Notes: a model not told the origin generated them from the sequence alone. 64,000 bases of DNA from Spirochaetia bacterium (GCA_965140585.1 OZ223264.1:839115-903114); one strand, 5' to 3'. Counted from the first letter of the stretch, positions 18,435-63,906 are shown. Made by a program: numbers and translations.

Positions 18435-19623
18435 GGACGCCTCTAAAAACTAAAGGAATTTCAAAAGATTCAAAATCTGATATTCTATTACTTTGGGAGG
18501 AATAAATGTCAAAGCAGAAAGGTTTTTTCATAGAAGATTTAAGACTATCAGAATTATCACAGCACGGAGATCCCTTGCAGAGATTGAGTGCAATGATTCC
18601 ATGGGAAAACTTTCGGCATAAATTAAATCGTATCTTTGTAAAAGAAGCAAAAGGCCCTGGAGGAATACCTCCATACGATTATGTGATGATGTTTAAAATC
18701 CTCGTATTGCAGAGAATTTATAATCTATCCGATTCGCAAATGCAGTACCAGATCATGGATCGATTATCATTTATGAGATTTCTCGGTTTGAATCTTGATG
18801 ACAAAGTACCCGATGAAAAAACAATCTGGCACTTTAGAGAAGAACTTGTTGAATCAAGGAAACTTGAAATACTATTTGAACAGTTCAGGAATTATCTGAT
18901 AAAAGAAGGAATACTGCTTGAGTCGGGGACAATTGTCGATGCTTCTTTTGTTGAAGTACCAAAACAAAGAAATAATAAAGATGAAAATAAAGAGATAAAA
19001 GAGGGCGAAACTCCTAAAGAGTGGTCAGACAATAAATTAAGACAAAAAGATGTGGATGCAAGATGGGTAACAAAAGGCGGGCAACGCCATTATGGCTACA
19101 AAAATCACATAAAAATTTATCGTAAATCCAAGCTTATTAAAAATTATGTAGTAACCAGTGCTGCAGTTCATGACTCGCAAGTAATAGAAGGAATTTTAGA
19201 AGAAGCTGATTCGCATCATGAATTATATGCTGATAGTGCTTATTGCGGAGCTCCAATAAAAGAAATATTGTCGGAATTGAAAATTAGAAACCGGATACAT
19301 GAAAAAGGTTATCGAAATAGCCCGTTGACTGAGAAACAAAAAGAGCGGAATCGAAAAAAGTCGAAGACGCGGGCGAGAGTAGAACATGTATATGGATTTA
19401 TGGTTAATTCGATGCAAGGTGATTTTATCAGGTACATAGGTCAGAAAAGAGCTGAAGCAGTGATAGGATTAAGTAACCTTGTTTATAATATGATGAGGTA
19501 TATCTATATATGTCCTGCTTGACGGTGGGATGATTGAATGAAGGCTGTATCGGCTGGCTGGTACAATGATAAAAAGGCTGCAGATGTTTTATGCAGCATA
19601 GCTGAAGGTTTTTAGAGGCGTCC
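18435..19623 (+). mobile_element. IS5-family insertion sequence, copy A
   Basis: 1189 bp. Perfect 16-bp terminal IRs GGACGCCTCTAAAAAC (18435-18450) and GTTTTTAGAGGCGTCC (19608-19623). TTA direct repeats at 18432-18434 and 19624-19626. Confidence 0.9.
18506..19522 (+). CDS. IS5-family DDE transposase
   Basis: 338 aa. InsH-type N-terminal domain (PPYDYVMMFKILVLQRIYNLSDSQ). Candidate DDE residues in IVDASF, YADSAY and VEHVYGF. Confidence 0.9.
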   Translation: MSKQKGFFIEDLRLSELSQHGDPLQRLSAMIPWENFRHKLNRIFVKEAKGPGGIPPYDYVMMFKILVLQRIYNLSDSQMQYQIMDRLSFMRFLGLNLDDKVPDEKTIWHFREELVESRKLEILFEQFRNYLIKEGILLESGTIVDASFVEVPKQRNNKDENKEIKEGETPKEWSDNKLRQKDVDARWVTKGGQRHYGYKNHIKIYRKSKLIKNYVVTSAAVHDSQVIEGILEEADSHHELYADSAYCGAPIKEILSELKIRNRIHEKGYRNSPLTEKQKERNRKKSKTRARVEHVYGFMVNSMQGDFIRYIGQKRAEAVIGLSNLVYNMMRYIYICPA

Positions 19624-27569: not shown

Positions 27570-28500
27570 ACTAAGGAGTGAATATCGTGACAAAGAAAAA
27601 GCCAGAAGGCATTTTTATCCCAATGGTGACTCCATTCAATGCATCTGATGAATCAATAGATTTTTCAGGTCTGAAGGAAGTGACTGAGTTTCTTGTAAAA
27701 AACGGAGTCGACGGGGTAATCCCCTCCGGAAGTACCGGCGAGTTTGTCGCAATGACAAAAGAAGAGCAGATGAAGGTCAATGCAGCGGTATGTGAATATG
27801 CAGCCGGAAGGATGAAGGTGTTCTGTTCAACAGGCGCTTACCGGACTGCTGATACAATTGAAATGTCACAGAGTGCAGAAGCTGCCGGAGCGGATGGAGT
27901 AATGATAGTAACACCATGGTACATGGCGCCTAACGAGGAAGAGCTTTATGACCACTACAAAGCGATCAGGAAATCGATATCGATACCGGTAATGGTCTAT
28001 CATAATCCGTACTATTCAACCTGTCTGATGACAGACGAGTTTATGGCCCGACTTTATAACGACGGATTGATTGATGCAGTGAAGGAAAGACAGGCTGATG
28101 TCTACAGACAGCAGGATCTGAGAGCCTTGACCGATGACGGCTTCGGCATATTTTACGGATATGACATCTGTCCGGTAGAGAGTGTTTCGATGTGGGCCGA
28201 CGGCTGGGTATGCGGAACAGGAAACCTGTTTCCGAAAGAAAACAAGACTGTCTATGATCTTGCAAAGTCAAGGCAGATAGAAGAAGCCCAGAAATATCAT
28301 TTTGAGAAAATTAGGCCGTATCTTCCCCTGTTTACTGAAAGTACATCAAAGGGACTGCCTTGTCCGTGGTTATCAGTGATAAAGGAAGGCCTTAAGCTTA
28401 GGGGCGTTAATGCGGGAGTTGCAAGGAAACCTGTAATGGAGCTTCCGGATGACGTGATGGTTAAACTGAAAAAAGTTTTAAAGGAATACGGGCATCTTTA
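27545..28500 (+). repeat. 956-bp direct repeat, copy 1 (identical to 33964-34919)
   Basis: Every line I compared matched base for base at an offset of 6419. The sense ORF and two antisense ORF translations are also identical. Identity starts 42 nt upstream of the start codon and ends inside the stop codon. Confidence 0.9.
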
Positions 28501-28501
28501 G
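27587..28501 (+). CDS. DHDPS/N-acetylneuraminate-lyase family class I aldolase/lyase, copy 1
   Basis: PSGSTGEF, VYHNPYY and AVKERQAD (Schiff-base Lys region). AAGGAG RBS 8 nt upstream of GTG 27587; the ORF opens at GTG 27578. Confidence 0.85.
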   Translation: MTKKKPEGIFIPMVTPFNASDESIDFSGLKEVTEFLVKNGVDGVIPSGSTGEFVAMTKEEQMKVNAAVCEYAAGRMKVFCSTGAYRTADTIEMSQSAEAAGADGVMIVTPWYMAPNEEELYDHYKAIRKSISIPVMVYHNPYYSTCLMTDEFMARLYNDGLIDAVKERQADVYRQQDLRALTDDGFGIFYGYDICPVESVSMWADGWVCGTGNLFPKENKTVYDLAKSRQIEEAQKYHFEKIRPYLPLFTESTSKGLPCPWLSVIKEGLKLRGVNAGVARKPVMELPDDVMVKLKKVLKEYGHL

Positions 28502-33988: not shown

Positions 33989-34919
33989 ACTAAGGAGTGA
34001 ATATCGTGACAAAGAAAAAGCCAGAAGGCATTTTTATCCCAATGGTGACTCCATTCAATGCATCTGATGAATCAATAGATTTTTCAGGTCTGAAGGAAGT
34101 GACTGAGTTTCTTGTAAAAAACGGAGTCGACGGGGTAATCCCCTCCGGAAGTACCGGCGAGTTTGTCGCAATGACAAAAGAAGAGCAGATGAAGGTCAAT
34201 GCAGCGGTATGTGAATATGCAGCCGGAAGGATGAAGGTGTTCTGTTCAACAGGCGCTTACCGGACTGCTGATACAATTGAAATGTCACAGAGTGCAGAAG
34301 CTGCCGGAGCGGATGGAGTAATGATAGTAACACCATGGTACATGGCGCCTAACGAGGAAGAGCTTTATGACCACTACAAAGCGATCAGGAAATCGATATC
34401 GATACCGGTAATGGTCTATCATAATCCGTACTATTCAACCTGTCTGATGACAGACGAGTTTATGGCCCGACTTTATAACGACGGATTGATTGATGCAGTG
34501 AAGGAAAGACAGGCTGATGTCTACAGACAGCAGGATCTGAGAGCCTTGACCGATGACGGCTTCGGCATATTTTACGGATATGACATCTGTCCGGTAGAGA
34601 GTGTTTCGATGTGGGCCGACGGCTGGGTATGCGGAACAGGAAACCTGTTTCCGAAAGAAAACAAGACTGTCTATGATCTTGCAAAGTCAAGGCAGATAGA
34701 AGAAGCCCAGAAATATCATTTTGAGAAAATTAGGCCGTATCTTCCCCTGTTTACTGAAAGTACATCAAAGGGACTGCCTTGTCCGTGGTTATCAGTGATA
34801 AAGGAAGGCCTTAAGCTTAGGGGCGTTAATGCGGGAGTTGCAAGGAAACCTGTAATGGAGCTTCCGGATGACGTGATGGTTAAACTGAAAAAAGTTTTAA
34901 AGGAATACGGGCATCTTTA
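33964..34919 (+). repeat. 956-bp direct repeat, copy 2
   Basis: See copy 1. The offset is exactly 6419 bp. Confidence 0.9.
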
Positions 34920-34920
34920 A
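34006..34920 (+). CDS. DHDPS/N-acetylneuraminate-lyase family class I aldolase/lyase, copy 2
   Basis: Protein identical to copy 1. Only the stop codon differs (TAA versus TAG). Confidence 0.85.
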   Translation: MTKKKPEGIFIPMVTPFNASDESIDFSGLKEVTEFLVKNGVDGVIPSGSTGEFVAMTKEEQMKVNAAVCEYAAGRMKVFCSTGAYRTADTIEMSQSAEAAGADGVMIVTPWYMAPNEEELYDHYKAIRKSISIPVMVYHNPYYSTCLMTDEFMARLYNDGLIDAVKERQADVYRQQDLRALTDDGFGIFYGYDICPVESVSMWADGWVCGTGNLFPKENKTVYDLAKSRQIEEAQKYHFEKIRPYLPLFTESTSKGLPCPWLSVIKEGLKLRGVNAGVARKPVMELPDDVMVKLKKVLKEYGHL

Positions 34921-38086: not shown

Positions 38087-39277
38087 GGCGCTTCTAAAAA
38101 CTAAAGGAAATTCAATGAATTCAAAAATCTGATATGCTTTTACTTTTGGATGAATAAATGTCAAAGCAGAAAGGTTTTTTCATAGAAGATTTAAAGCTAT
38201 CAGAATTATCACAGCACGGAGATCCCTTGCAGAGATTGAGTGCAATGATTCCATGGGAAAACTTTCGGCATAAATTAAATCGTATCTTTGTAAAAGAAGC
38301 AAAAGGCCCTGGAGGAATACCTCCATACGATTATGTGATGATGTTTAAAATCCTCGTATTACAGAGAATTTATAATCTATCCGATTCGCAAATGCAGTAC
38401 CAGATCATGGATCGATTATCATTTATGAGATTTCTTGGTTTGAATCTTGATGACAAAGTACCCGATGAAAAAACAATCTGGCACTTTAGAGAAGAACTTG
38501 TTGAATCAAGGAAACTTGAAATACTATTTGAACAGTTCAGGAATTATCTGATAAAAGAAGGAATACTGCTTGAGTCGGGGACAATTGTCGATGCTTCTTT
38601 TGTTGAAGTACCAAAACAAAGAAATAATAAAGACGAAAATAAAGAGATAAAAGAGGGCGAAACTCCTAAAGAGTGGTCAGACAATAAATTAAGACAAAAA
38701 GATGTGGATGCAAGATGGGTAACAAAAGGCGGGCAACGCCATTATGGCTACAAAAATCACATAAAAATTTATCGTAAATCCAAGCTTATTAACAATTATG
38801 TAGTAACCAGTGCTGCAGTTCATGACTCGCAAGTAATAGAAGAAATTTTAGAAGAATCTGATTCGCATCATGAATTATATGCTGATAGTGCTTATAGCGG
38901 AGCTCCAATAAAAGAAATATTGTCGGAATTGAAAATCAGGAACCGGATACATGAAAAAGGCTATCGAAATAGCCCGTTAACTAAGAAACAAAAAGAGCGG
39001 AATCGAAAAAAGTCGAAGACGCGGGCGAGAGTAGAACATGTATATGGATTTATGGTTAATTCGATGCAAGGTGATTTTATCAGGTACATAGGTCAGAAAA
39101 GAGCTGAAGCAGTGATAGGATTAAGTAACCTTGTTTATAATATGATGAGGTATATCCAGATATGTTCTGCATGAGCTGGGTAGATTGATGGATGAGGAAT
39201 GTATCGACATGCCGGTACAATGATAAAAAAGCTGATGATGTTTAATACAGCATAGCTGAAGGTTTTTAGAGGCGCCC
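38087..39277 (+). mobile_element. IS5-family insertion sequence, copy B
   Basis: 1191 bp, same orientation as copy A. Right IR GTTTTTAGAGGCGCCC (39262-39277); left IR is degenerate (GGCGCTTCTAAAAAC). Flanks are ATA and TTA, so there is no clean target duplication. Confidence 0.85.
38158..39174 (+). CDS. IS5-family DDE transposase
   Basis: 338 aa, with 8 substitutions relative to copy A. Confidence 0.9.
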   Translation: MSKQKGFFIEDLKLSELSQHGDPLQRLSAMIPWENFRHKLNRIFVKEAKGPGGIPPYDYVMMFKILVLQRIYNLSDSQMQYQIMDRLSFMRFLGLNLDDKVPDEKTIWHFREELVESRKLEILFEQFRNYLIKEGILLESGTIVDASFVEVPKQRNNKDENKEIKEGETPKEWSDNKLRQKDVDARWVTKGGQRHYGYKNHIKIYRKSKLINNYVVTSAAVHDSQVIEEILEESDSHHELYADSAYSGAPIKEILSELKIRNRIHEKGYRNSPLTKKQKERNRKKSKTRARVEHVYGFMVNSMQGDFIRYIGQKRAEAVIGLSNLVYNMMRYIQICSA

Positions 39278-49027: not shown

Positions 49028-49621
49028 ATGAACATTACTGACAGAATAATAAAACACGTATACAGCACAGATTTTAAGGATATTCCAGAGGCAGTGATAA
49101 ATATTCAGAAGAAAGCACTAATCGATGCTGTTGCTGTATCCTTTGCCGCCTCTTCAAAAGGCGAGAGTTGCGGTGAATTCATCGGGCTTGCTAAAGATCT
49201 TGGAGGAGCGGAGTCTTGTGTAGTGATAGGCTGCGGGTTTAAAGCTTCTCCCGTTGGAGCGGCTCTTGCAAACGGTGCAATGGCTCATGCGATGGATTAT
49301 GAGGATGCGCATGATCTTTCCTGTATACATTCCAACGCAGTCTCTACAGCGGCAGCACTTACGATGGCGGATCTTAAAAGGCCGGATGTCCGGAAAGGAT
49401 TTTCTTGCTGCACTGACATTAGTAAGCGATATCTCCATAAAATAACGGATGTTTTCTATATGCCGGTAGATATTCCTGAAAATTGCTCGCCGGTTATCGT
49501 TGAACCTGAAAATCCAAAATTCAATGAGATAAATAATTATATAGAAAAGATTACAAGAGCAGAAAACATTGATACGGAATTTACTGTTTGCGGTAACGAA
49601 ATAAAGATTAATCTGAAATAA
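49028..49621 (+). pseudogene. MmgE/PrpD-family remnant (N-terminal ~120 aa intact, then frameshift and deletion)
   Basis: The N-terminus ...ALIDAVAVSFAASS...ALANGAMAHAMDYEDAH... is PrpD-like. The continuation SGKDFLAALTLVSDISIK lies in another frame (ORF 49254-49445). The total of 197 aa compares with about 450 in intact members. Confidence 0.6.
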
Positions 49622-51679: not shown

Positions 51680-52409
51680 TTATTTTTTTACATCTTTAAT
51701 CACTTGATCGATAATAATGGTGGTGTATGTGTCGGTTTGATTCGCTGAAGCTCGCTATATTCTGTTTCATCTGCTCAAAGGTTGATGCCCCTGAAAGGTT
51801 CCATTACCCATACAGGTATTTTATAATGTTTAAGCAGCTCCACCTTAGCTTCAGCATCCTGGAAGGACCAGTCAACATAGTTAAGCTGCAGCTGACCGAA
51901 TTCCATATGCTCGCCATAGGCTTCAAGAAAACGTTTTATCACTTCGTAACTTCCATGTGCTGAAAAACCGAGGTGTTTTATTCTTCCGTTTTTTTTCTGC
52001 TCAAGAAGGTACTTAAGAATACCCTATCTTTCATTGAGATAGGCATCGATATTAATTTCGCAGACATTATGAAAGAGGTAGAAATCAAAATATTCAACAC
52101 CGCATTTTTTCAGCTGTTCTTCGAAGATTTCCTCCACCTTATCCATGTTGGACAGATCGTATACGGAGAATTTTGTTGCAAGATAAAATTTATTCCTGGG
52201 ATAGTTGCCCAGGATTCGGCCTATTACTGTTTCTGACTGTCCGTCATGATAGCCGCATGCAGTATCAAAATAATTAACTCCATTATCAAATGCATATTTA
52301 ACCATATCAGCGGCTGCCTGCTCATCTATCTGACCGTCATTACCGGCAGTCTCATTGTTCCCATACCCAGAAGGGACAGATCCTTGTCTTTAAATTTCCT
52401 GTAGATCAT
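51680..52409 (-). pseudogene. Aldo/keto reductase with multiple lesions
   Basis: MIYRKFKDKDLSLLGMGTMRLP, then a frameshift, then NDGQIDEQAAADMVKYAFDNGVNYFDTA. An in-frame TAG lies at 52024-52026 between ...AYLNER and GILKYLLEQKKNGRIKHLGFSAHG. The frame ends early after EPFRG. A C-terminal remnant EQMKQNI... follows directly, implying an internal deletion of about 100 aa. Confidence 0.8.
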
Positions 52410-54580: not shown

Positions 54581-55303
54581 ATGAAACAGCCGCATATATT
54601 ATGTGATTCAGAAGATGTAGCAGAAAGAGTTCTTCTGCCCGGAGATCCTGCCCGTGTGTTCAGGGTAGCAGAGCTCCTTGATAATGTCCGTGAGATTGCA
54701 TTCAATAGGGAGTTCAGGACTGTAACCGGAAGCTATAGGGGGACTCCTGTGACAGTTACTTCAACTGGTATAGGCGGGGCATCGGCAGTTATTGCAGTTG
54801 AAGAACTTGCAGCCTGCGGGGCAAAGTCCTTCATCAGAATTGGCAGCTGCGGAGCCTGTCAGCCGGGAATTGCCCTTGGTGATCTGGTTATTTCAACCGG
54901 TTCCGTACGTGAGGACGGGGCTTCCGTGATGTACGCCCCGAAAGAGTTTCCGGCTGTTCCTGACTTCTCACTTTTATCGGCTCTTGTTAAAGCCTGTTCC
55001 GATGCCGGTTATTCTTATCATACCGGGATTACACGCAGCCATGATTCCTTCTATATAGATCATGAGGCTGAGCTGATGCGCAGGTGGAACAGTCTGGGAG
55101 TTATGGCCTCGGACATGGAAACCTCTGCACTCTTTACGCTTGCATCAATCCGCCGGGTTCGGGCGGCATCAATCCTTAATAATGTTGTATTGTATGAGGG
55201 CGATGTGAAGGAAGGAGTCGGTGACTATGTTGATGAAGCTGCCGCAGCCGCTGAGGGAGAAAAGAAGGAAATCCTTGCAGCACTGAATGCCTTGGTAATC
55301 TGA
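54581..55303 (+). CDS. Nucleoside phosphorylase (PNP/UDP family 1; uridine or purine nucleoside phosphorylase)
   Basis: 240 aa. LLPGDPARV, TSTGIGGAS, MASDMETSALFTLA. Confidence 0.8.
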   Translation: MKQPHILCDSEDVAERVLLPGDPARVFRVAELLDNVREIAFNREFRTVTGSYRGTPVTVTSTGIGGASAVIAVEELAACGAKSFIRIGSCGACQPGIALGDLVISTGSVREDGASVMYAPKEFPAVPDFSLLSALVKACSDAGYSYHTGITRSHDSFYIDHEAELMRRWNSLGVMASDMETSALFTLASIRRVRAASILNNVVLYEGDVKEGVGDYVDEAAAAAEGEKKEILAALNALVI

Positions 55304-55305: not shown

Positions 55306-55608
55306 TCATCCTCCGCCGAGCAGAACCTTGAAGATAATCTTCTCACCATCTGAAACTTCAGTCCTGTCCAGTGCATAGGGGCCGATCACCTCACCCATAT
55401 ACTCGGTTTTAATCGGATGCCGCATCATTTTCCTGTTATGATCGAATATTTTATCCCAAAGTTCCGGAGTCTCTTTATAAAGACTGGTAATAATATCAGC
55501 GATTGAGTCTCCTGAATTAAACTTGGTTTTTACAGTATAGGGGCCGGGTTTTTCTGTCTGAAAGTGATAGGAAAGAGGCGGATAAATCTGAACTTCGGCT
55601 TTAGGCAT
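55306..55608 (-). CDS. MoaD/ThiS-family beta-grasp (ubiquitin-like sulfur-carrier-type) protein
   Basis: 100 aa ending ...SDGEKIIFKVLLGGG then a stop. The pattern (YPPL... GDSIADIITSLYKETPEL ... DG[DE]x[IV] ... GG-COOH) matches the MoaD family. Confidence 0.6.
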   Translation of the reverse strand: MPKAEVQIYPPLSYHFQTEKPGPYTVKTKFNSGDSIADIITSLYKETPELWDKIFDHNRKMMRHPIKTEYMGEVIGPYALDRTEVSDGEKIIFKVLLGGG

Positions 55609-55709
55609 TTCTGATATCTCCGGTGAGTTATCATACCAAACTTTATTAAATTTTTCATCATTAGCTATTGTTTATTAATACTCCTGAATATAGATTCAAA
55701 TTATATATT

Positions 55710-56939
55710 ATGAACAGACCTACATATTTAAATATACTTATGGCTGCTACATTTCTATTCAGCCTGGCAACCGGAATGGTTAGTTTTGCAATTGTTTTTT
55801 ACGTAAAGCAGCGTTTTGATGCTGATCATACTATGATAGGTATGATTACTTCAGGACAAACTCTTTTCTATATAATAGGAGTTCTTGCTTTTTCCCTTAA
55901 TAAAAATACGCATCCAAGGTATTTTCTCGGTTTTTCCGCCCTTGGTATGGCTGTATTGTTAACTGTCTACCAGATTTTTCCATACTGGCGTCTCACCCTT
56001 ATTTGCGGATGTCTGTACGGACTCTTTATGGCTCTTTTCTGGCCGCGAATTTCAGGCTGGGTATCCTGGGGTCTTGAGGGTAATAACCTGAGTAAAACCA
56101 TGTCCCAGTATAATTTTTCGTGGTCTACTGGGGGAATTATTGCTCCGGCAGTCAGTGGTTTTCTTACCGAGCGAAATATTGTTCTACCATTTATTTCAAC
56201 TATATTTATGCTGCTGTTTATAGGACTGCTTCTTTTTATATTTTCACGTATCTATCCGGAAATGAGAAAGGGGCAGGCGGAAATCAGAAAAGCAAGAGTA
56301 AAGGCTCTGGAAGTGGGTGAAGAACCTGCCGATACAGATCCGGAAATCGGAACCACTCAGATGACTCCGCTCAGGTTTCCTGCGAGGCTTGGTGTGATTT
56401 CGACCTTTGTAATTTCCGGGATGATAGTTTTTATTTTTCCGGCATATATGAGGGAAAGTCTTGGCTACCGGGAAGGGATAATCGGTTTTTTCCTTCTGTT
56501 CAGACAGATCTTTTCAACTGCGGGCTTTATTCTCTGGGGGAAATGGAAGGGCTGGCATTTTAAGCCGCGACTGATTCTTTTTAATCAGATACTCACTGTA
56601 CTGACACTTGCCCTGCTTATGGTATCCAGGACTCCTGCAGCCCTGCTTGTTTTCTTCGGTGTGATGGGATTTAATCTCAGCTTTTCCTATACTCTGGGAC
56701 AGTTTTACGGAGCAACCGGAAGTACCAACCGGGAACGCAGTATGGCTATGCATGAGGGAGTGATTAACCTGGGAATAATTGTAGGAACGTTCTTCGGCGG
56801 AATAATCAGTGACGGGAAGGGCATGTCTGTGACGCTTTTTTCTTTCCTTATTGTCTGCACTGCCTTGCTAATCGCCCAGTTCATTCTTTTGAGATATTTT
56901 AAGAAAAAAGGACTTCTTGTATTTGTAGACATGGTATGA
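55710..56939 (+). CDS. MFS transporter
   Basis: About 12 TM segments. ATG 55710 is preferred; the ORF opens at TTG 55668. Confidence 0.8.
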   Translation: MNRPTYLNILMAATFLFSLATGMVSFAIVFYVKQRFDADHTMIGMITSGQTLFYIIGVLAFSLNKNTHPRYFLGFSALGMAVLLTVYQIFPYWRLTLICGCLYGLFMALFWPRISGWVSWGLEGNNLSKTMSQYNFSWSTGGIIAPAVSGFLTERNIVLPFISTIFMLLFIGLLLFIFSRIYPEMRKGQAEIRKARVKALEVGEEPADTDPEIGTTQMTPLRFPARLGVISTFVISGMIVFIFPAYMRESLGYREGIIGFFLLFRQIFSTAGFILWGKWKGWHFKPRLILFNQILTVLTLALLMVSRTPAALLVFFGVMGFNLSFSYTLGQFYGATGSTNRERSMAMHEGVINLGIIVGTFFGGIISDGKGMSVTLFSFLIVCTALLIAQFILLRYFKKKGLLVFVDMV

Positions 56940-56940: not shown

Positions 56941-57807
56941 GTGAAGAGTATGAAGCTCCAGCATTACTATCTTTTTCACAGGGAGAATCTCTATAAGGAC
57001 GATATCTCATCAATTACCCTTCTTGGTGATCTGGTATGCACCCCTGACTACTACCGGGAACCGCATCATCACAGTGAGGATATTGAAATCTGCCTGATAA
57101 CTGCCGGAAAAGGAAGCTTTATAATAGAAGATACCGAATATAAAGTGAAACAGGGAGACCTGTTTTTTGCCATGCCTTACCAGGTTCATCATTCAATTGC
57201 TGATCCCCACGATCCATACCGGATGTATTATCTTGCCTTTCGACTCTTTGATGATCCGGTATATAAAAAACTTTATGACGAGATGTCACATGTTACACAG
57301 CACGTGTTTACCGATCAATTCAACCTGCCTCAATATTTCAGTGCACTTATTGAAGAAGTTCTGAATAATTTTACAGCCAGAAACAAGGCTATTGAAAGTC
57401 TGTTTCATTCTATCGTTATTTTTCTTCACCGTAACTGCCTGGTCGATAAGGCAGGAATAGTCCGGGAATACAGCAGCAAGCAGCTTCTTATCCAGAAGAT
57501 TACGACATACATCGATTCTAATATACACCAGAAATTCTACCTCGATGACATAGCAAATGAACTGGGCTACTCCTCATACTACATCAGCCGTGTTTTTAAA
57601 GAGCAGATGGATATGCCGCTTTCGGGATACTGGAACAGGGCCAAGATCCTGAGAGCCCGATACCTGCTTAAAAATAATCCTGAAATGACGCTGCTTGAGG
57701 CTTCTGAACGGGTCGGTATCGATGACTATCACTACTTTTCAAGACTATACAAGCAGATTACCGGACTTTCACCCACAGCCGACCGCAAAATAATCCAAGA
57801 AACCTGA
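56941..57807 (+). CDS. AraC family transcriptional regulator (cupin sensor plus HTH)
   Basis: N-terminal cupin (HHHSEDIEICLITAGKGSF). C-terminal HTH (IANELGYSSYYISRVFKEQM...YHYFSRLYKQITGLSP). Starts 1 nt after the MFS stop; an alternative ATG is at 56950. Confidence 0.85.
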   Translation: MKSMKLQHYYLFHRENLYKDDISSITLLGDLVCTPDYYREPHHHSEDIEICLITAGKGSFIIEDTEYKVKQGDLFFAMPYQVHHSIADPHDPYRMYYLAFRLFDDPVYKKLYDEMSHVTQHVFTDQFNLPQYFSALIEEVLNNFTARNKAIESLFHSIVIFLHRNCLVDKAGIVREYSSKQLLIQKITTYIDSNIHQKFYLDDIANELGYSSYYISRVFKEQMDMPLSGYWNRAKILRARYLLKNNPEMTLLEASERVGIDDYHYFSRLYKQITGLSPTADRKIIQET

Positions 57808-57897
57808 CAAAACAGTCTAACGACAACCCGCAGATCCTGAACGATAATTAAACTAAATAATGAAATAATTGTTAAGAATGCAGTCCGGAGGCGAGGT

Positions 57898-59760
57898 ATG
57901 AGCGAAATAGAGGTGTGGAAGGATCTTATAGGGGATGCCGATTCCGGCAATTCTGTTTATATAAACAGGGTTAGAAAATGCTTCACTGATATGGACAATA
58001 AGCAGACTGTGAATATAAGCCTGCTTTTAACTGCTCTTGAAGGTGAAAACCGCTCACGCTTTGATATAATTCTGCCGGATCCCGAAGCAGTGGAATCTGA
58101 GTTGGCAGATCTATCCCGCCGTTATCTGTACGCTGAAGTCTATAATATCCTTTCGTCACTTGGCGGCAGAATGCTTGAGATCTTCTATGACAAGGCAAAC
58201 CGCAGCCTTGATGCTCTGTGCTCCTCACTTGATGAGGCCTTCGGCATCAGTTTAAGCCGGAAAGACAGGCCTGGTTACGGCAGATGCGTAAATGTAATTG
58301 ACCGCATGCTTGCCGCCCTTTCTTCAGATAATGAGCGTTTCAGTTTTGTTTATTCGGATATCAGCACTCTCGGTAATCCATCACCTGTATCTTCTGAATC
58401 CGGCAGAGAATCAGGGCTTGTTATATTCAGACGAGCTGTCGATGGCCTTGAGGGAAAGCTGCTCTGCGGAATTGATGTAGGCGGGACCGATATCAAGCTG
58501 GCCGTTGTCTATGACGGACGGGTGATTGCTTTCAAAGAATACGACTGGTTTCCGGCTGTTTTTAAACAGTCGAAGCAGCTTGTTGAACCTGTAGTCCTGC
58601 TTACAAGAATGCTCCGTAATATTTTCATACTTACTCATGTGCATGATAAAGTCCCGGTCGAGCTCAAGGTTCGAATTGCCGATGTTCTCAGACGCGAAGC
58701 TTCGGAGACGGAAATGTCTGTATTTTGTGATGATGCCGAATCCTTTCTGAAGGATCACATCATTAACTTTGACGGAATAGGCCTTTGCTTTCCTGATGTC
58801 GTAATCAGGGACAAGGTTGTAGGCGGTGAGGTCTACAAGACCAGAGGAATAAGGAATAACCCCGAGATAGATTATGAGGATGATTTTACAAGCCTTACGG
58901 ATCTTAATGTGCGGCTTGAGCAGTACTGCTCAAAGCCCGGGGCTGTCAGCATGATAAATGACGGACCGATGGCGGCCTTCACTGCTGCCGTTGAAATGGC
59001 TGCTTCGGATAAGGCTCCGATGGTTGAAAAGGGTGTATTTGCCCATACTCTTGGAACAGAGCTTGGTACAGGCTGGGTCCGTGAGGATGGTACAATACCT
59101 GATATACCGCTTGAAGTGTACAACTTTATAATCGATCTCGGATGTGTACCGGAACAGCAGTACCATCCGGACGATCTTAGAAGTGTGAATAATTTCAACA
59201 CAGGGCTTTCCGGAACGCTTCAGAAATATACAAGCCAGAGCGGTGTCTTCAGGCTGGCGGTAAAATACTTTCCGGCAGAACGTCCCGACCTTTACAGGGA
59301 GCTTGAAGAAAAGGGCTATGTACAGGCTGTTCAGATTGACGGGGAAAGCAGACTGATTGTTCCAACTGAGCCGGAAGATATGAGAAAGGCTTTTCTTGAG
59401 CACATGATGATGCTTGCAGAAAGGGAAAAAGATGAAACCAACCGTAAAATCTGGCTTGAAATTGGTTCTGCACTTGGAGTCACCTGGATTGAAACCGAAC
59501 GTATCCTGCACCCGGCTGCAAAAACGCGGTTTCAGTTCGGCCGTCTTGTTAAACGGAAGGTTTGCTATGACCTTCTTCTGGAGGGAGCAAAAACAATTGT
59601 TCCGGAGATTGAGTTTGAAATAGCAGACTCAACTCTGGCCAATACAAGCCTTATGAAACAGCTTGAGGAGGATCGGGACTATACGGTTGCCCAGTTTGCA
59701 CAGGCTGTTGGAGCAATTTATTATGCCAATGAATGCCTGACCGGAAAAGGCCTGGTATAA
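57898..59760 (+). CDS. Atypical 620-aa ASKHA-superfamily (ROK/hexokinase-like) ATPase, putative sugar kinase
   Basis: GIDVGGTDIKLAVV (phosphate-1), INDGPMAAFTAAVE and HTLGTELGTGWV (phosphate-2/adenosine-like) lie in the central part. There is an N-terminal extension of about 190 aa with no motif I recognise. I do not see the ROK zinc-Cys motif. Confidence 0.55.
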   Translation: MSEIEVWKDLIGDADSGNSVYINRVRKCFTDMDNKQTVNISLLLTALEGENRSRFDIILPDPEAVESELADLSRRYLYAEVYNILSSLGGRMLEIFYDKANRSLDALCSSLDEAFGISLSRKDRPGYGRCVNVIDRMLAALSSDNERFSFVYSDISTLGNPSPVSSESGRESGLVIFRRAVDGLEGKLLCGIDVGGTDIKLAVVYDGRVIAFKEYDWFPAVFKQSKQLVEPVVLLTRMLRNIFILTHVHDKVPVELKVRIADVLRREASETEMSVFCDDAESFLKDHIINFDGIGLCFPDVVIRDKVVGGEVYKTRGIRNNPEIDYEDDFTSLTDLNVRLEQYCSKPGAVSMINDGPMAAFTAAVEMAASDKAPMVEKGVFAHTLGTELGTGWVREDGTIPDIPLEVYNFIIDLGCVPEQQYHPDDLRSVNNFNTGLSGTLQKYTSQSGVFRLAVKYFPAERPDLYRELEEKGYVQAVQIDGESRLIVPTEPEDMRKAFLEHMMMLAEREKDETNRKIWLEIGSALGVTWIETERILHPAAKTRFQFGRLVKRKVCYDLLLEGAKTIVPEIEFEIADSTLANTSLMKQLEEDRDYTVAQFAQAVGAIYYANECLTGKGLV

Positions 59761-59773
59761 GGAGGAATCAGCA

Positions 59774-62164
59774 ATGAACAGCAATGACAGAAGCAGATAT
59801 GTAAAAGAAATAAAGGGTCTGGACTTATCAGGACGGATAGGAAAGTTAAAAGAATTGATGCTCGATGAACCGCGTTATCTTTCCATAGAACAGGCCCTGA
59901 TTGTTACCTCTGTTTACAAGAAAAATGAGGATAAACCGGTAGAAATTAAACGGGCTATGGCGCTAGCTGCAGCCCTCGAAAAGATTGATATAAGAATTGA
60001 TGTAGGTGAGCTTATAGTTGGAAACCGCACCGCAGGTGTCCGGGCCGGAGTTGTTTCTCCTGATGCAGGAATTTCCTGGATAGACCGTGAAATAGAGCAT
60101 CTGCACGACCGGCCACAGGACCGCTTTAATGTTCACCCTGAAGATATTGAATTGTTCAGAAAAGAGATTTTGCCCTACTGGAAGGGCAGGAGTCTTGAAG
60201 ATCTTATTTACAGCAGTATCGGGGACGAGGTTTCGGCTATCGGTAAGGTTGCAAAGATAAACCAGAAAGATCACGCCCAGGGCCATATATGCCCGGATAC
60301 TGAAAACTGGATTGCCAGAGGGCCTGCAGGGCTGCTTGAAGAAGCAAGGCTTAATGCCATGAATGCTTCCGATAAAAACAGGAATTTTTATACAGCAGTC
60401 GAAACTGTACTTACTGGCACTATCAGTTTTATTCTCCGTTATGCGGATGAGGCTGAGAGGCTGGCCTCTGAAGCTTCCGATGGAAAGATTAAGGCTGATT
60501 TTGCAGAAGTTGCACGAATCTGCCGTAAACTTGCATCTGAACCGGCTGGCAGCTTTCATGAGGCGCTTCAGTCTATGTGGTTTCTGTATGTAATACTTCA
60601 GATGGAATCAAATGCCTCATCCTTCTCTCCCGGCCGCGCCGATCAGTATCTCTACCCCTACTGGAAAAAGGATATGGACAAGGGTGATATTGATTACGCA
60701 CGATCTCTTGAACTGGTTGAGGCGCTCTGGCTGAAGTTTAATCAGATTGTATACCTGCGTAATTCAGGGAGTGCCCGCTACTTCGCCGGATTCCCAATAG
60801 GGTTTAATGTAGCTCTGGGCGGACAGACCTCTTCCGGTGAGGACTCATCCAATGAGCTTTCGTTCCTGTTTCTGAAGGCGCAGGAACATATCGGCCTTCC
60901 CCAGCCGAACCTCTCTGCCAGGCTGTTCAAGGGCAGTCCCGATGACCTGGTTGATGAGTGTGCCAGGGTAATAGGGAAGGGCAGCGGAATGCCCCAGATC
61001 TTCAATGATGAAAGCATTATCCTGGCACTGATGAACCAGGGGATTGAACCCGATGATGCCAGAAATTACGCTATTGTCGGCTGCGTTGAGCTAACGACTC
61101 ACGGCAACAACCTTGGCTGGAGTGATGCCGCGATGTTTAATCTGAACAAGGCTCTGGAACTTACGCTCAACAACGGCATCTGTCTTTTAACCGGTGATAA
61201 AATCGGTATGGACCTCGGTTCACTTGCTGATTATAAAACCTATGAAGAGCTGGAGGCTGCGTATACAAAGCAGCTTGATTATTTTATAGACCGGATGATG
61301 CTGATGTGCGATCGGGTTGACCGTTTTCATGCAGAGGTTGTCCCCTCGGCGTTTCTGTCCTCTGTGATCGATAACTGCCTGGAAAAGGGAGTGGATGTCA
61401 CTGCGGGAGGAGCCCGCTACAACCTGTCAGGTATTCAGGCCATCCAGGTAGCAAACCTTGCCGACAGCTTTGCAGTAATCAAGAAGCTTGTTTATGATGA
61501 AAAAAGCGTAAGCGGTGAGCAGCTGCTGAAAGCACTTCAGACCAACTGGGAATCCGACGAGGTTCTCAGGCAGAGAGTTCTCAACAGGGTTCCGAAATAT
61601 GGAAATGATGAAGAATGGGTTGATGCAATAGGCGCCAAATGGGTTAATTACTTTGCCGGCCGTATGGGAGAGTTTACCAATGCCCGCGGCGGCCGATATC
61701 ATACCGGTTTGTATACAGTTTCGGCCCATGTCCCGATGGGGCAGAATGTAGGAGCATCACCGGACGGGCGCCTTGCAAAGGATCCACTTGCAGACGGAGG
61801 CATGTCGGCAATGTACGGCCGCGACATCGAGGGCCCCACAGCCCTGCTGAAGTCTGTATCAAGAATACCCGCAGCCTGCGGAAGCAACGGAACCCTGCTT
61901 AATATGAAATTCCTTCCGGAGTTTTTTCATACTGAGGACGGCATCAGAAAGTTCAACGGCTTTCTGAGAACCTTCGTCCGGCTGAATATAAACCACATCC
62001 AGTTCAACGTTCTGCGGAAGGAAGACCTGATAGCCGCCAGGGAGACTCCCGAGAAGTACCGGAGCATGACTGTCCGTGTAGCCGGCTATACAGCCTATTT
62101 TACCGAGCTTGCCGGCGACCTCCAGGAGGAGATAATAGCCCGTACAAGCTACGGTGATGCATAG
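59774..62164 (+). CDS. Glycyl-radical enzyme, PFL2/glycerol-dehydratase-like (eliminase-type)
   Basis: 796 aa. C-terminal glycyl-radical fingerprint TVRVAGYTAYF. Active-site loop IVGCVELT (Cys-x-Glu, not the Cys-Cys of PflB). GGAGGA RBS, with a 13-nt gap after the upstream stop. Confidence 0.9.
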   Translation: MNSNDRSRYVKEIKGLDLSGRIGKLKELMLDEPRYLSIEQALIVTSVYKKNEDKPVEIKRAMALAAALEKIDIRIDVGELIVGNRTAGVRAGVVSPDAGISWIDREIEHLHDRPQDRFNVHPEDIELFRKEILPYWKGRSLEDLIYSSIGDEVSAIGKVAKINQKDHAQGHICPDTENWIARGPAGLLEEARLNAMNASDKNRNFYTAVETVLTGTISFILRYADEAERLASEASDGKIKADFAEVARICRKLASEPAGSFHEALQSMWFLYVILQMESNASSFSPGRADQYLYPYWKKDMDKGDIDYARSLELVEALWLKFNQIVYLRNSGSARYFAGFPIGFNVALGGQTSSGEDSSNELSFLFLKAQEHIGLPQPNLSARLFKGSPDDLVDECARVIGKGSGMPQIFNDESIILALMNQGIEPDDARNYAIVGCVELTTHGNNLGWSDAAMFNLNKALELTLNNGICLLTGDKIGMDLGSLADYKTYEELEAAYTKQLDYFIDRMMLMCDRVDRFHAEVVPSAFLSSVIDNCLEKGVDVTAGGARYNLSGIQAIQVANLADSFAVIKKLVYDEKSVSGEQLLKALQTNWESDEVLRQRVLNRVPKYGNDEEWVDAIGAKWVNYFAGRMGEFTNARGGRYHTGLYTVSAHVPMGQNVGASPDGRLAKDPLADGGMSAMYGRDIEGPTALLKSVSRIPAACGSNGTLLNMKFLPEFFHTEDGIRKFNGFLRTFVRLNINHIQFNVLRKEDLIAARETPEKYRSMTVRVAGYTAYFTELAGDLQEEIIARTSYGDA

Positions 62165-62176
62165 GAAGCCGTTTTA

Positions 62177-62929
62177 TCAGCCGCCCATATGCTGCGGGGT
62201 AAGCGATTCAAGCTCTATGCCCCTGTTCACTGCTTCTGCTGCATCTGTCAGGATAGCGGCGGTTGCAGTGGCTCCGGCCCGTATTACACCGATTGAGCGG
62301 ACGTAAAGAAGGTCTTTCAGGGTTCTGACTCCGCCTGCAGCCTTTATCTGAATGCTGCTGTCTGTGTTCGCCCGCATCAGTTTCAGATGAGCTTCGGTGG
62401 CGCCCTTGTAGGTGTAGAATCCGTTGTCCTGTTTTACAAATCCGTAGCCGGTACTTGTTTTTACAAAGGCAGGTTTAACTTCACTGCAGATCCGGCAGAG
62501 CTGAATTATCGTTTCATCATCAAGATAATCGTTCTCAAAAATCACTTTCAGATACGCGCCACCGGTTACCGCAGCCTCATTAACAGCGGCAATTTCATCT
62601 TTTACAAAGCTCCATTCTTTGCCCAGGGCCTTGCCGATATTTATTACCATGTCAATTTCTGCAGCTCCATCGGCACATGCTCGGGCTGTTTCAGCAACCT
62701 TGATTTCAGTACTGCTGTTTCCATGGGGGAAGCCGATTACAGTTCCGACGGCCACATCTGTGTCCGCAAGTATTTCAACCGCGAGTGAAACTGCATACGG
62801 CTTGATGCATACCGATGCGGTATCATAATTTGCTGCAACTTCGCATTCTTTTCTTAGTATTTCATCAGTCATTGTCGGGTGAAGCAGTGAGTGGTCTATC
62901 ATCTTTGCCAGATCTTTTACACTTATCAT
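62177..62929 (-). CDS. deoC: Deoxyribose-phosphate aldolase family (class I aldolase)
   Basis: 250 aa. DHSLLHPTMTDEI, ASVCIKPY, Schiff-base lysine context FVKTSTGY. Convergent with the GRE, with 12 nt between the stops. Confidence 0.85.
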   Translation of the reverse strand: MISVKDLAKMIDHSLLHPTMTDEILRKECEVAANYDTASVCIKPYAVSLAVEILADTDVAVGTVIGFPHGNSSTEIKVAETARACADGAAEIDMVINIGKALGKEWSFVKDEIAAVNEAAVTGGAYLKVIFENDYLDDETIIQLCRICSEVKPAFVKTSTGYGFVKQDNGFYTYKGATEAHLKLMRANTDSSIQIKAAGGVRTLKDLLYVRSIGVIRAGATATAAILTDAAEAVNRGIELESLTPQHMGG

Positions 62930-62982: not shown

Positions 62983-63906
62983 GTGCAGACAGGAAAATGG
63001 CATATCAATTCGGGCAAAACGGGTTATAATGAGTTGATGGTTGCCGAGATAAATAATTTTTACAGAAAAGACTATGTTCGCAGAGCCGGTGTTGTGGATA
63101 TGTATAAGGAGATAAAGCCGTCTTTTCTTGATTTTCACAGAATGACGGTCAGCAGGGATTATGAATATCCGGGACATCAGCATGAAAATTATGAGCTTAT
63201 CTGGGTTGAGCACGGACCCTATATGTTCAGTCTCAATCATCAGGAGCTTGAAATAAGAAATAATATGTTTGTTGTAATCAAGCCCGGTGATCTTCATCAG
63301 GATCATCTGAAAAAAGGTCAGTCTCACTTTGTACTCCATTTTTCTCTCAACGAACCACTTTTTTCTCCCCTGGTAACAGCTCCGGAGCAGATAGGTGCTT
63401 CGATCCTTGACGGAGCTGCGAGTATCCTGAATGATATGGAGCAGGAAGCCTCTGTTTCAGGAAATACCGACCGCTTTTCCGGAGCTCTTCAGGATTCCCT
63501 GTTGGAAACCCTCTTCTGGCACATCGCGAGAATTTTGCCTGAAACATCCCTGTCTGAGGTGTTTAGAAATTATTCAGACCGGCAGCTTTTTGTTTCCAGA
63601 CTGTATTCTGTTTTCAAAGAAAAACTGAATCAACCGTTGGGAGTTGAAGAGATAGCCGGGAAAATGGGCATTTCAAAAAGGGCATTGTCGATGAAATGCA
63701 GTGAGTACCTCAACAGTTCACCGGCCCGGCTGTATCTGGAATCACGATTTCAGAAGGCGGAGACTCTTCTGAGGCATAGTGATAAAACAGTTAAAGAAAT
63801 AAGTATTGAGCTGGGATTTGATTCTCCGTTTAACTTTACACGTGCATATAAGCGGGTGAGGGGCCTTACACCTTCCGAGTTCAGGGAACTGAATGATTTT
63901 TCCTGA
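62983..63906 (+). CDS. AraC family transcriptional regulator (cupin sensor plus HTH)
   Basis: Cupin (YEYPGHQHENYELIWVEHG). C-terminal HTH (IAGKMGISKRALSMKCSEYL...FNFTRAYKRVRGLTPSEF). The true start may be an internal ATG. Confidence 0.8.
   Translation: MQTGKWHINSGKTGYNELMVAEINNFYRKDYVRRAGVVDMYKEIKPSFLDFHRMTVSRDYEYPGHQHENYELIWVEHGPYMFSLNHQELEIRNNMFVVIKPGDLHQDHLKKGQSHFVLHFSLNEPLFSPLVTAPEQIGASILDGAASILNDMEQEASVSGNTDRFSGALQDSLLETLFWHIARILPETSLSEVFRNYSDRQLFVSRLYSVFKEKLNQPLGVEEIAGKMGISKRALSMKCSEYLNSSPARLYLESRFQKAETLLRHSDKTVKEISIELGFDSPFNFTRAYKRVRGLTPSEFRELNDFS

Follow-up and report, generated by a model that had tools for sequence, protein, structure and literature searches.

Organization of the locus

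The window, by which we mean the whole 64-kb stretch of DNA analysed here, contains a glycyl radical enzyme (GRE) encoded next to a large putative sugar kinase that we name K600. Upstream of this pair lies the gene of an MFS transporter (55668..56939, plus strand; 423 aa; PF07690 MFS_1, 91 bits), presumed to be the substrate importer, and 1 nt separates its stop from the next gene on the same strand, which encodes the AraC-family regulator of the K600/GRE module (56941..57807; AraC_binding and HTH_18 domains). This regulator is 64% identical to the AraC protein that precedes activase, K600 and GRE in a Sphaerochaeta locus (L001). In the 90-nt gap that follows, ACGACA-17-GATAAT (57820..57848, plus strand) is a weak sigma-70-like promoter match, agreeing at 9 of 12 positions and to be read as a consensus match only. 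K600 is an intact ORF of 620 aa (57898-59760, plus strand) with a GGAGG Shine-Dalgarno sequence 5' of its start, and the 13 nt between its stop and the GRE gene (59774..62164, plus strand; 796 aa; PFL-like and Gly_radical domains) contain an AGGAGG Shine-Dalgarno sequence. K600 and the GRE are a co-transcribed, strongly conserved functional pair. A deoxyribose-phosphate aldolase, DeoC (62177..62929, minus strand; 250 aa), is encoded convergently with the GRE, with 12 nt between the two stops, and divergent from it is the gene of a second AraC regulator (62983..63906, plus strand), which we place with the DeoC module and not with the GRE module. The ORFs, spacings and motifs of the original prediction were all reproduced in the sequence, and so was its statement that the window lacks an activase.

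For the latter, a six-frame scan of the 64 kb, restricted to stop-to-stop segments of 80 aa or longer, gave the CxxxCxxC signature once, in a 98-aa minus-strand segment near nt 2526 that is taken to be non-coding; the window thus holds no radical-SAM activase, and the activase that generates the glycyl radical must have its gene in another part of the genome. Activation of one GRE by the activase of another is reportedly rare (PMC13450708 section 2.5). The missing activase is a lineage-specific trait and not a property of the system, an adjacent activase gene being present in 57 of 69 orthologous K600 loci. Among the loci found, only two carry a GRE of the same clade (GRE-K, defined below) with no activase within 5 kb, namely the window, which was checked by hand, and its 94% twin, L005. 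A search of the 2.2-Mb contig of the twin for close relatives of the Sphaerochaeta activase, a weak test, gave none. These observations would fit a window copy that is a decaying, non-functional remnant whose activase has been lost, a reading that we consider extremely improbable. The ORFs are all intact, the Cys, Glu and Gly loop residues are conserved, and good ribosome-binding sites precede both K600 and the GRE. Between the window and the twin, two genomes that both lack a nearby activase, dN/dS is 0.098 for K600, 0.072 for the GRE and 0.08 for the MFS transporter, which the twin has kept, and values of about 0.07-0.10 indicate that the three genes are still under selection.

K600, a predicted sugar kinase with an additional domain

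K600 had been described as a ROK-like ATPase. Searches at the sequence level gave this description no support, since K600 had no Pfam or NCBIfam match at E <= 0.01 (the ROK family PF00480 included) and no sequence match in the PDB, but a structure model and a profile-profile comparison both uphold it. In the AF2 model (mean pLDDT 86.6) a conserved alpha/beta N-terminal domain (residues 1-160; 57898..58377, plus strand) is followed, behind a low-confidence linker (residues ~161-185), by an ASKHA/ROK-like kinase domain (58378..59760, plus strand), the C-terminal 430 residues of the protein modelling as a ROK-type sugar kinase. Foldseek matches the model best with ROK kinases (NagK, NanK and hexokinase), at target-normalised TM scores of 0.66-0.72 and about 13% identity. 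An hhalign comparison of K600 with ROK gave a probability of 76% (E = 2.4e-5) and aligned N354-D355 to the N-D of the ROK DNDAN motif, in which the Asp is presumably catalytic. Besides the fold and this aligned N-D, K600 has the ASKHA phosphate-1 (DxGxT) and phosphate-2 (GTGxG) motifs, and its sequences D193xGGTxIK200, N354-D355-G356 and G386TELGTG392 are invariant apart from D198 (at least 90%).

The ROK kinases (NagK, NanK and ROK glucokinase/hexokinase; PF00480) are thus the best structural matches of K600 and share its phosphate motifs, whereas K600 is twice as long and carries the N-terminal domain of 160 residues in addition. The ROK ExGH sugar-binding and CxCGxxGC zinc motifs are absent from K600; the region aligned to them contains neither Cys nor His and reads DDLRSxNNFNTGLxGTLQKY, which is conserved. 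The N-terminal domain is modelled with a block-mean pLDDT of ~90 or higher over residues 11-140, and its invariant residues include Y76, Y82, N83, R124, Y127, G128, N132, D135 and R136. A Foldseek search of the PDB found no solved fold relative for it, the best match having E = 0.13 and TM <= 0.3. The K600 family profile retrieved only 382 cluster representatives among 1.84 billion, which indicates that HMMER does not bridge to the ROK family.

The GRE and its neighbor DeoC

The window GRE has both hallmarks of the glycyl radical enzyme superfamily, a PFL-like barrel (PF02901, 672 bits) and a C-terminal glycine-radical domain (Gly_radical PF01228, 97 bits) with an RVxG[FYW] loop, which alignment identifies as R768-V-A-G771-Y772 (62075..62089, plus strand). 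Its Cys loop G436-C437-V438-E439 (61079..61090, plus strand), which contains the thiyl radical Cys and the Glu of the CxE motif, aligns with those of PflD, YbiW and glycerol dehydratase (C433/E435) and places the enzyme among the CxE GREs, which comprise 1,2-eliminases and isomerases. It scores 777 bits against TIGR01774, above the cut-off, and 754.9 bits against the PflD equivalog model (NCBIfam PRK09983), below the cut-off of 1109; its best PDB match is E. coli PflD (8yjo, 641 bits), with glycerol dehydratase at 570 bits. In an NJ tree GRE-K is monophyletic (80%), as is the PflD group (100%), and the node joining the two has 100% support. GRE-K is thereby sister to, and outside, the clade of E. 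coli PflD (the 1,5-anhydromannitol-6-phosphate C-O lyase) and the AM6P-bound 8ID0, in agreement with the expectation that the enzyme would fall outside every characterised clade. Identity between GRE-K and PflD is 40-45% (42% for the window GRE), the same distance as that between PflD and glycerol dehydratase.

E. coli PflD is the nearest characterised GRE. In addition to the CxE Cys loop, the two groups have in common the motifs NQxD..QGH, ESNASS and TVSAH and the ADGG insertion, whereas the pocket of GRE-K has GFPIGFN for the PflD sequence GFPTGYT, SGIQAIQ for SGVQGIG and VELTTHGN.LGWSD for VELSIPGRTYGLHD. The glycyl loop consensus is RVAGYTAYF in GRE-K and RVAGYSAFF in PflD and YbiW. YbiW, 34% identical to the window GRE, keeps NGHS and lacks the ADGG insertion. 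With the B12-independent glycerol and 1,2-propanediol dehydratases the window GRE shares the CxE motif and the equivalents of His164 (His171) and Asp447 (Asp451); it differs from glycerol dehydratase in having ESNASS for ESNGHS (a motif also present in YbiW), AGFPIGFN for GGYPMYQN and the one-residue ADGG insertion, and the tree places it with PflD.

These motifs bear on the route originally proposed for the locus, in which a kinase would supply an alditol or anhydro-alditol phosphate, the GRE, as a 1,2-diol dehydratase, would convert it to a 2-deoxy-aldose-5-phosphate (a 2-deoxypentose-5-phosphate from a pentitol phosphate), and DeoC would cleave this to glyceraldehyde-3-phosphate and acetaldehyde. 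We now regard this route as highly unlikely, even though DeoC, so close to the GRE stop, is a bona fide DERA-type enzyme. It scores 188 bits against the NCBIfam deoC equivalog TIGR00126 (cut-off 117), and its D93, K157 and K196 align with D102, K167 and K201 of E. coli DERA, which we take to be the catalytic residues; it is 31% identical to the E. coli enzyme (b4381), from which it differs by a 10-residue insertion after TSTGYG. Purifying selection on DeoC is evident from the comparison with the twin (dN/dS 0.098). A different DeoC (231 aa) is encoded beside a Cof-type sugar phosphatase in three distinct loci of the Sphaerochaeta type, 8-10 kb away from the module, an arrangement that loosely parallels ybiV-ybiW-ybiY-fsaA of E. 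coli, and the retention of His171, the counterpart of glycerol dehydratase His164 (PMC13450708 section 5.6.1), also speaks for a dehydratase. Formation of a 2-deoxypentose-5-phosphate by the GRE is nevertheless disfavored by the lack of ESNGHS and by the ESNASS, TVSAH and ADGG motifs shared with PflD, a ring-opening isomerase.

The distribution of DeoC argues in the same direction. Of 163 scanned loci only 3 have it no more than 10 kb away from K600, namely the window, its twin and one Sphaerochaeta locus, and direct adjacency is confined to the lineage of the window. The Sphaerochaeta DeoC is only 45% identical to that of the window, against 75% for the GRE and 64% for the AraC regulator of the same genomes; the same distant DeoC arrangement is seen in three further Sphaerochaeta-type loci. 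The window DeoC belongs to a subfamily of ~255 aa that has members in Planctomycetota, Lentisphaerota and Spirochaetota, with 62-73% conservation, and whose genes do not neighbor any GRE gene. The closest orthologues of the window DeoC (65-72% identical) are stand-alone genes in all four contexts, two of which have a divergent upstream AraC-family gene, full-length in one case and a 58-aa fragment in the other. The full-length protein, the one of the two that was compared with the second AraC of the window, is 37% identical to that regulator over 281 aa (E = 2e-60). It is encoded divergently from the DeoC orthologue of Oceanispirochaeta (L173), a locus whose surrounding 8 kb contain no GRE. 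DeoC and its divergent AraC regulator are therefore most likely an independent neighboring module, and the view of DeoC as the committed downstream enzyme is not supported. The aldolase embedded in compact clusters is fructose-6-phosphate aldolase (FSA), not DeoC.

The conserved module and its proposed pathway

Relatives of K600 were found in at least 297 species genomes from several phyla. Linkage was counted over 69 loci flanked by 4.5 kb or more of sequence on each side, and a wider scan of neighbors covered 163 loci. GRE-K lies within 5 kb of K600 in 56 of the 69, the GREs next to K600 elsewhere being orthologues of the window enzyme (62-75% identical), so that two members of the predicted GRE/ROK-like/DeoC trio do recur together and the third, as described above, does not. 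The usual order is ABC transporter, GRE, activase and K600, with GRE-activase-K600 in 50 loci. K600 has no GRE nearby in 12 of the 69 loci; in L056, the one such locus annotated in detail, it stands beside a ROK kinase and a URO-D-like gene. Linkage of K600 to GRE and activase is very tight, as would be expected of a GRE-associated ATPase that serves as a regulator, chaperone or radical-maintenance factor and not as a substrate kinase; such a role would also be in keeping with the N-terminal domain, which is large, conserved and unlike any solved fold, and with the want of a sequence-level match to any kinase family. We strongly doubt it, given that the fold of K600 and the N-D aligned with DNDAN match sugar kinases and that K600 also occurs with no GRE within 10 kb. 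Furthermore, a kinase is required in the clusters that rely on an importer, since the substrates of the known relatives are 6-phosphates (PMC13450708 section 5.7).

PflD and YbiW are the only sugar-acting GREs described in a review of June 2026 (PMC13450708), section 5.7 of which shows that the original prediction had described them essentially correctly as enzymes acting on 1,5-anhydrohexitol-6-phosphates and followed by an aldolase. PflD-PflC of E. coli, together with the Frw PTS, FsaB and GldA, constitutes the 1,5-anhydromannitol branch of anhydroglycolysis (Ma et al. 2024, as reviewed in PMC13450708 and PMC12441222), and for the known pathway two reviews describe phosphorylation by the PTS only (PMC12441222 section 5.1; PMC13450708 section 5.7). 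In place of PTS uptake, the K600 module has an MFS or ABC importer and K600 as the predicted ATP-dependent kinase. The window differs from the PflD system also in having no adjacent activase; of the parts of an anhydroglycolysis-type cluster it contains the GRE, the kinase candidate and the importer, the activase and FSA being absent.

Only 5 of 163 loci have FSA close to the module, and in one of the compact clusters an Fe-dependent alcohol dehydrogenase (Fe-ADH) is present as well. The Vallitalea longa cluster consists of Fe-ADH, GRE-K, activase, K600, FSA and an ABC transporter, and its FSA and Fe-ADH parallel fsaB and gldA of the E. coli cluster gldA-fsaB...pflD-pflC. In three other loci (L137, L138 and L153) the genes for ABC transporter, AraC, GRE-K, activase and K600 stand back to back with those for FSA, a YbiW orthologue and an activase. 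Several loci have an orthologue of YbiW (48-56% identity to the E. coli protein) beside the module, in some cases with a ROK kinase (5 of 23) or FSA as its own neighbor. The same overall chemistry is expected as for YbiW-YbiY-FsaA-YbiV, the 1,5-anhydroglucitol-6-phosphate C-O lyase branch of E. coli. A succession of transporter, kinase, radical enzyme acting on a sugar phosphate and aldolase, as originally envisaged, fits these comparative data.

On balance we favor, with some reserve, the view that MFS-AraC-K600-GRE is a reduced form of a widespread and seemingly undescribed module, most likely for an ATP-dependent, non-PTS form of radical anhydroglycolysis. A neutral cyclic sugar alcohol, for which 1,5-anhydromannitol or a near relative is our best guess, would be imported by the MFS carrier in the window and by the ribose-type ABC system that takes its place in most orthologous clusters. 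K600 would then phosphorylate the sugar alcohol with ATP, replacing the PTS of E. coli. Through Cys437 the GRE would abstract a hydrogen from the carbinol carbon adjacent to the ring oxygen and Glu439 would deprotonate the hydroxyl, upon which the ring C-O bond would break to give a 1-deoxy-ketose phosphate. Finally, a class I aldolase (FSA where cluster-encoded) would split this product into glyceraldehyde-3-phosphate and hydroxyacetone.

In some loci, L102 among them, GRE-K is accompanied by a PflD-like GRE, and in L048 by a YbiW-like GRE as well, and this co-occurrence in single loci suggests that GRE-K has its own, different substrate. The commonest conserved neighbor is a shikimate-dehydrogenase (AroE)-like gene, which 57 of 163 loci contain and which in 30 of them directly follows K600; GFO, GMC, SDR and Zn-ADH oxidoreductases also recur nearby. 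In the AroE-like protein of a Propionivibrio locus (L034), the one sequence inspected, the stretch HSKSP of E. coli AroE, which presumably provides the carboxylate-binding serines, reads ENPGV, suggesting a non-shikimate substrate. Taken with the clade-specific pocket substitutions, these features could mean that GRE-K acts on a phosphorylated cyclic polyol other than an anhydrohexitol, for example a carbocyclic or other ring compound that the shikimate-dehydrogenase-like and GMC/GFO oxidoreductases often flanking the module would process, with K600 as the dedicated kinase. This appears rather unlikely to us. The FSA and Fe-ADH of Vallitalea and the FSA/YbiW genes of the L137-type loci point to a 1-deoxy-ketose-phosphate product, the partner of K600 in the Propionivibrio locus is a genuine orthologue of PflD with 68% identity to the E. 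coli enzyme, and the oxidoreductases could, we infer, equally be read as interconverting 1,5-anhydroglucitol, 1,5-anhydrofructose and 1,5-anhydromannitol.

We tentatively raise the possibility that K600 founds an unrecognised family of sugar kinases of ~600 residues, with a ROK-like core and a new N-terminal domain, and that with GRE-K it forms a third radical ring-opening branch, whose substrate would be a phosphorylated cyclic sugar alcohol distinct from those of YbiW and PflD. If so, the shikimate-dehydrogenase-like and GMC/GFO oxidoreductases would interconvert free anhydro-sugars as feed, and the branch would be at work outside the gut, in ~300 anaerobe species, most of them uncultured, from Spirochaetota, Bacillota, Planctomycetota, Rhodocyclaceae and Myxococcota.

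The locus points to a conserved PTS-independent version of radical anhydroglycolysis in several phyla, which would extend this chemistry beyond gut Enterobacteria. A kinase family with no database name and a distinct GRE clade together make a target for enzyme discovery with respect to the kinase, its N-terminal domain and the specificity of the GRE. Among the orthologous clusters at least one comes from a named strain, and this organism, Vallitalea longa SH1V18, may allow a direct test of the prediction. Public records that contain the module include metagenomes from peat, sediment and bioreactors.

The K600 and GRE genes and the fold of K600

The gene for K600, a 620-aa sugar-kinase-like protein (57898-59760, + strand), is followed by that of a 796-aa glycyl radical enzyme (GRE; 59774-62164, +), which starts 13 nt past the K600 stop. 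Upstream lie the genes for an MFS transporter (55668-56939, +) and a first AraC regulator (56941-57807, +), the latter starting 1 nt past the MFS stop. Downstream, a deoC gene (62177-62929, -) converges with the GRE gene, the stops being 12 nt apart, and a second AraC gene (62983-63906, +) is divergent from deoC. The ORF map of the window recovered all elements and spacings of the original prediction. The presence of an AGGAGG ribosome-binding site in the 13-nt gap, together with a GGAGG preceding K600 itself, makes it almost certain that K600 and the GRE are co-transcribed. An Rfam scan of the window returned no RNA families. A uridine-phosphorylase-like gene (54581-55303, +; 228 bits, under the TIGR01718 cut-off of 280) and a convergent 100-aa ORF (55306-55608, -), with only a weak match to the ubiquitin-like SAMP1, are both conserved ahead of the MFS gene in the twin, a 94%-identical locus (L005) in a related genome.

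The K600 sequence has no match in Pfam, NCBIfam or PDB, and its classification came only from a structure model and from profile-profile comparison. The protein database holds 1273 relatives at E <= 0.001; the 120 matches listed are all unnamed or 'hypothetical', more than 50% identical to K600 and mostly about 600-630 aa long. Only 382 matches to the family profile were found among 1.84 billion cluster representatives; this is a small family, isolated among known sequences. From an alignment of 29 homologues AlphaFold2 gave a confident model (mean pLDDT 86.6). Structurally it comes nearest to ROK sugar kinases (NagK, NanK and ROK hexokinase), at about 13% identity and with target-normalised TM-scores of 0.66-0.72. 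Comparison by hhalign with ROK kinases from neighbouring genes gave 76% probability (E = 2.4e-5), pairing N354-D355 of K600 with N-D in the DNDAN motif of ROK kinases, and its GTELGTG with their phosphate-2 motif. Where ROK kinases carry the ExGH and zinc-cysteine motif, K600 has another invariant stretch. The predicted "ROK-like ASKHA ATPase" therefore stands at the level of fold, in both model and hhalign, but by sequence criteria K600 falls outside the ROK family. The model also places residues 1-160, with confidence, in a domain of their own, for which a PDB fold search detected no significant relative (best E = 0.13). An activator ATPase of the 2-hydroxyacyl-CoA-dehydratase type was also considered for K600 and set aside, since the fold is that of sugar kinases and the sole invariant Cys is C556.

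The GRE-K clade and the neighborhood of K600 genes

The window GRE contains PFL-like and Gly_radical domains, with G436-C437-V438-E439 as the Cys loop and R768-V-A-G771-Y772 as the glycyl loop. It belongs to a clade of K600-linked enzymes, designated GRE-K, whose members are 62-75% identical to it across phyla; identities to E. coli PflD (40-45%), YbiW (32-38%) and glycerol dehydratase (36-41%) are much lower. Among solved structures, the best hits of the window GRE are PflD (8yjo, 641 bits; 8id0, 604 bits), followed by glycerol dehydratase (570 bits). In a neighbor-joining tree GRE-K (80% bootstrap) is sister to the PflD group, with 100% at the joint node, and the two stand apart from YbiW and from the dehydratases. 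The window GRE reaches 755 bits with the PflD equivalog model, under the cut-off of 1109. The pockets were compared by motif alignment: PflD and GRE-K have in common the NQxD..QGH loop, TVSAH, a one-residue ADGG insertion and ESNASS, at the site of which glycerol dehydratase and YbiW have NGHS. GRE-K differs from PflD in GFPIGFN (PflD GFPTGYT), VELTTHGN.LGWSD (PflD VELSIPGRTYGLHD) and SGIQAIQ (PflD SGVQGIG).

Relatives of K600 occur in 297 stretches from one scan of species-representative genomes and in 247 further stretches from a metagenome scan, the titles of these records naming Spirochaetota, Bacillota, Planctomycetota, Rhodocyclaceae (Propionivibrio) and Anaeromyxobacter. ORFs were called in 163 loci and classified with seed proteins, and linkage was counted in the 69 whose K600 gene is flanked by 4.5 kb or more on each side. 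An orthologue of the window GRE lies within 5 kb of K600 in 56 of the 69 and a GRE activase in 57, the gene order being GRE, activase, K600 in 50; no GRE is nearby in 12. A ribose-type ABC transporter is usually encoded upstream of the GRE. Recurrent neighbors among the 163 loci include DeoR regulators (44 loci), ROK kinases (34), HbpS-like proteins (26), YbiW-like GREs (26) and oxidoreductases of the GFO, GMC, SDR and Zn-ADH types. A shikimate-dehydrogenase-like gene is present in 57 of the 163, directly 3' of K600 in 30. One such gene (locus L034, 11822-12685) scores 223 bits, above the 200 of the aroE model, and its product, the one sequence inspected, has ENPGV in place of the HSKSP of E. 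coli AroE, a stretch that we take to bind the substrate carboxylate. This replacement suggests that enzymes of the L034 type probably act on a non-carboxylated ring compound. In a Clostridia subgroup (L056, 7966-11842, and L055, L058, L066, L074, L076 and L081), K600 is 46-49% identical, lacks a GRE within 10 kb and is preceded by ABC-ATPase genes, a URO-D-like gene and a ROK kinase; L056, the sole locus of the subgroup annotated in detail, has rpoA and rplQ immediately upstream.

Proposed pathway and the place of DeoC

[quoted passage not shown] A cluster of Vallitalea longa SH1V18 encodes an Fe-alcohol dehydrogenase, GRE-K, activase, K600, a fructose-6-phosphate aldolase (FSA) and an ABC transporter, mirroring gldA-fsaB...pflD-pflC of E. 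coli. Three metagenome loci join ABC, AraC, GRE-K, activase and K600 genes, back to back, to genes for FSA, a YbiW orthologue and an activase; a ROK kinase was not detected in any of the three. In Propionivibrio, K600 lies beside a pyranose-oxidase-like GMC enzyme and a GRE that is a true PflD orthologue, sharing 68% identity with the E. coli protein. These clusters tie the module to PflD/YbiW chemistry, and on the simplest reading K600 would be an ATP-dependent kinase that takes the place of the PTS in importer-based clusters, with GRE-K catalyzing a PflD-like C-O ring opening. The exact substrate of GRE-K may differ, as it has a pocket signature of its own and shares loci with other GREs: L102 encodes both GRE-K and a PflD-like GRE, and L048 a YbiW-like GRE as well. 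In both loci each GRE-K and PflD-like gene has an adjacent activase, and there is one K600 per locus. The flanking oxidoreductases could, we infer, interconvert anhydroglucitol, anhydrofructose and anhydromannitol.

The general logic first put forward for the window, in which a transporter, a kinase, a radical enzyme acting on a sugar phosphate and an aldolase follow one another, is supported by these clusters. Its specific form, in which the GRE dehydrates a pentitol-5-phosphate to a 2-deoxypentose-5-phosphate for cleavage by DeoC, is not. The window DeoC scores above the NCBIfam deoC equivalog cut-off and keeps the residues aligned with D102, K167 and K201 of E. coli DERA, presumably the catalytic Asp and two Lys. 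As a downstream partner of the GRE it is unlikely, since only 3 of the 163 scanned loci have DeoC near K600: besides the window and its twin, this is Sphaerochaeta L001, whose DeoC is a different one at a distance of 8 kb. DeoC is likewise distant from K600 in three more Sphaerochaeta-type loci found by look-ups. The window DeoC belongs to a subfamily of roughly 255 aa that is 62-73% conserved across phyla, and in all four contexts examined its orthologues are isolated genes that have neither a GRE nor K600 in the vicinity. Divergently upstream of the orthologue, two of the four have an AraC-family gene, one a 58-aa fragment and one full-length, the latter (Oceanispirochaeta) encoding a protein 37% identical to the window's second AraC (E = 2e-60). 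From this rarity and these contexts, DeoC and the second AraC are most simply viewed as an independent module that abuts the GRE operon by chance. A residual hint that DeoC is tied to the K600/GRE module after all comes from Sphaerochaeta clusters, in which DeoC and a Cof-type phosphatase are retained at no more than 10 kb from the module, in an arrangement loosely parallel to ybiV-ybiW-ybiY-fsaA of E. coli; the Sphaerochaeta DeoC has 231 aa and is only 45% identical to that of the window.

A review of June 2026 counts six C-O eliminases and three isomerases among GREs, none of which makes a DeoC substrate or is reported with a kinase (PMC13450708). Literature searches gave nothing relevant linking GREs with deoxyribose-phosphate aldolase, shikimate dehydrogenase or ROK, and no description of the K600/GRE-K module in a coverage that excluded Ma et al. 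2024 (JACS). The module most likely represents a variant of radical anhydroglycolysis that depends on a kinase and does without the PTS; the pathway itself is known, and what is new is an unnamed kinase family (K600) and an uncharacterised GRE clade (GRE-K).

The activase and other features of the window

A six-frame scan of all 64 kb found no credible CxxxCxxC motif, in agreement with the activase gap noticed at the outset. Among the loci found, a GRE lacks a nearby activase only in the window and in its twin, and both belong to the few that are ordered K600 then GRE. Sphaerochaeta relatives keep the order AraC, activase, K600, GRE (their AraC being 64% identical to the window's first), which indicates that the activase gene has been specifically lost or relocated in the window lineage. 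Between window and twin, dN/dS is 0.072 for the GRE, 0.080 for the MFS transporter and 0.098 for both K600 and DeoC; these genes are maintained by selection, and therefore an activase encoded elsewhere in the genome likely supplies the radical. The best 120 relatives of the Sphaerochaeta activase, a set that leaves out more distant activases, include none on the 2,205,822-bp contig of the twin. Erosion of the activase gene in Sphaerochaeta L169, called at 214 aa, was considered and rejected, as the full 305-codon frame is open and CPLSCRWC is kept. In L001, L167 and L169 a PFL-type GRE of 760-770 aa and a 208-aa PflA-like activase directly follow the activase-K600-GRE-K operon (at about 14.6-18.5 kb in each locus). 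GRE-K on a Sphaerochaeta metagenome contig (L170, 2713-5087) was called as two ORFs of 502 and 289 aa, reflecting a frameshift or an assembly error.

Elsewhere in the window, a Zn-ADH, DeoR, E2/E3, fused E1 (819 aa), SDR and FGGY kinase cluster includes a 445-aa ORF (7378-8715) which, like a 515-aa ORF at 16484-18031, has no Pfam match. A 616-aa TaqI-like/Eco57I-type N6 DNA methylase (13642-15492, -) adjoins a low-GC stretch (36-39% GC at 16-22 kb). Two ORFs are apparent gene remnants: a 197-aa one (49028-49621), in which an MmgE/PrpD domain is reduced to its N-terminal half, and a 93-aa one (52024-52305) that by eye resembles an aldo-keto-reductase fragment. Two IS5-like DDE transposase genes (DDE_Tnp_1 and DUF772; 18506-19522 and 38158-39174), of 338 aa each and with near-identical N-termini, bracket about 19 kb. 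A DHDPS-family gene of 307 aa occurs twice (27578-28501 and 33997-34920), the copies being identical over their first 40 residues and flanking an FAD-oxidoreductase, a sugar ABC transporter and a DUF4867 gene; the pair looks like a segmental duplication.
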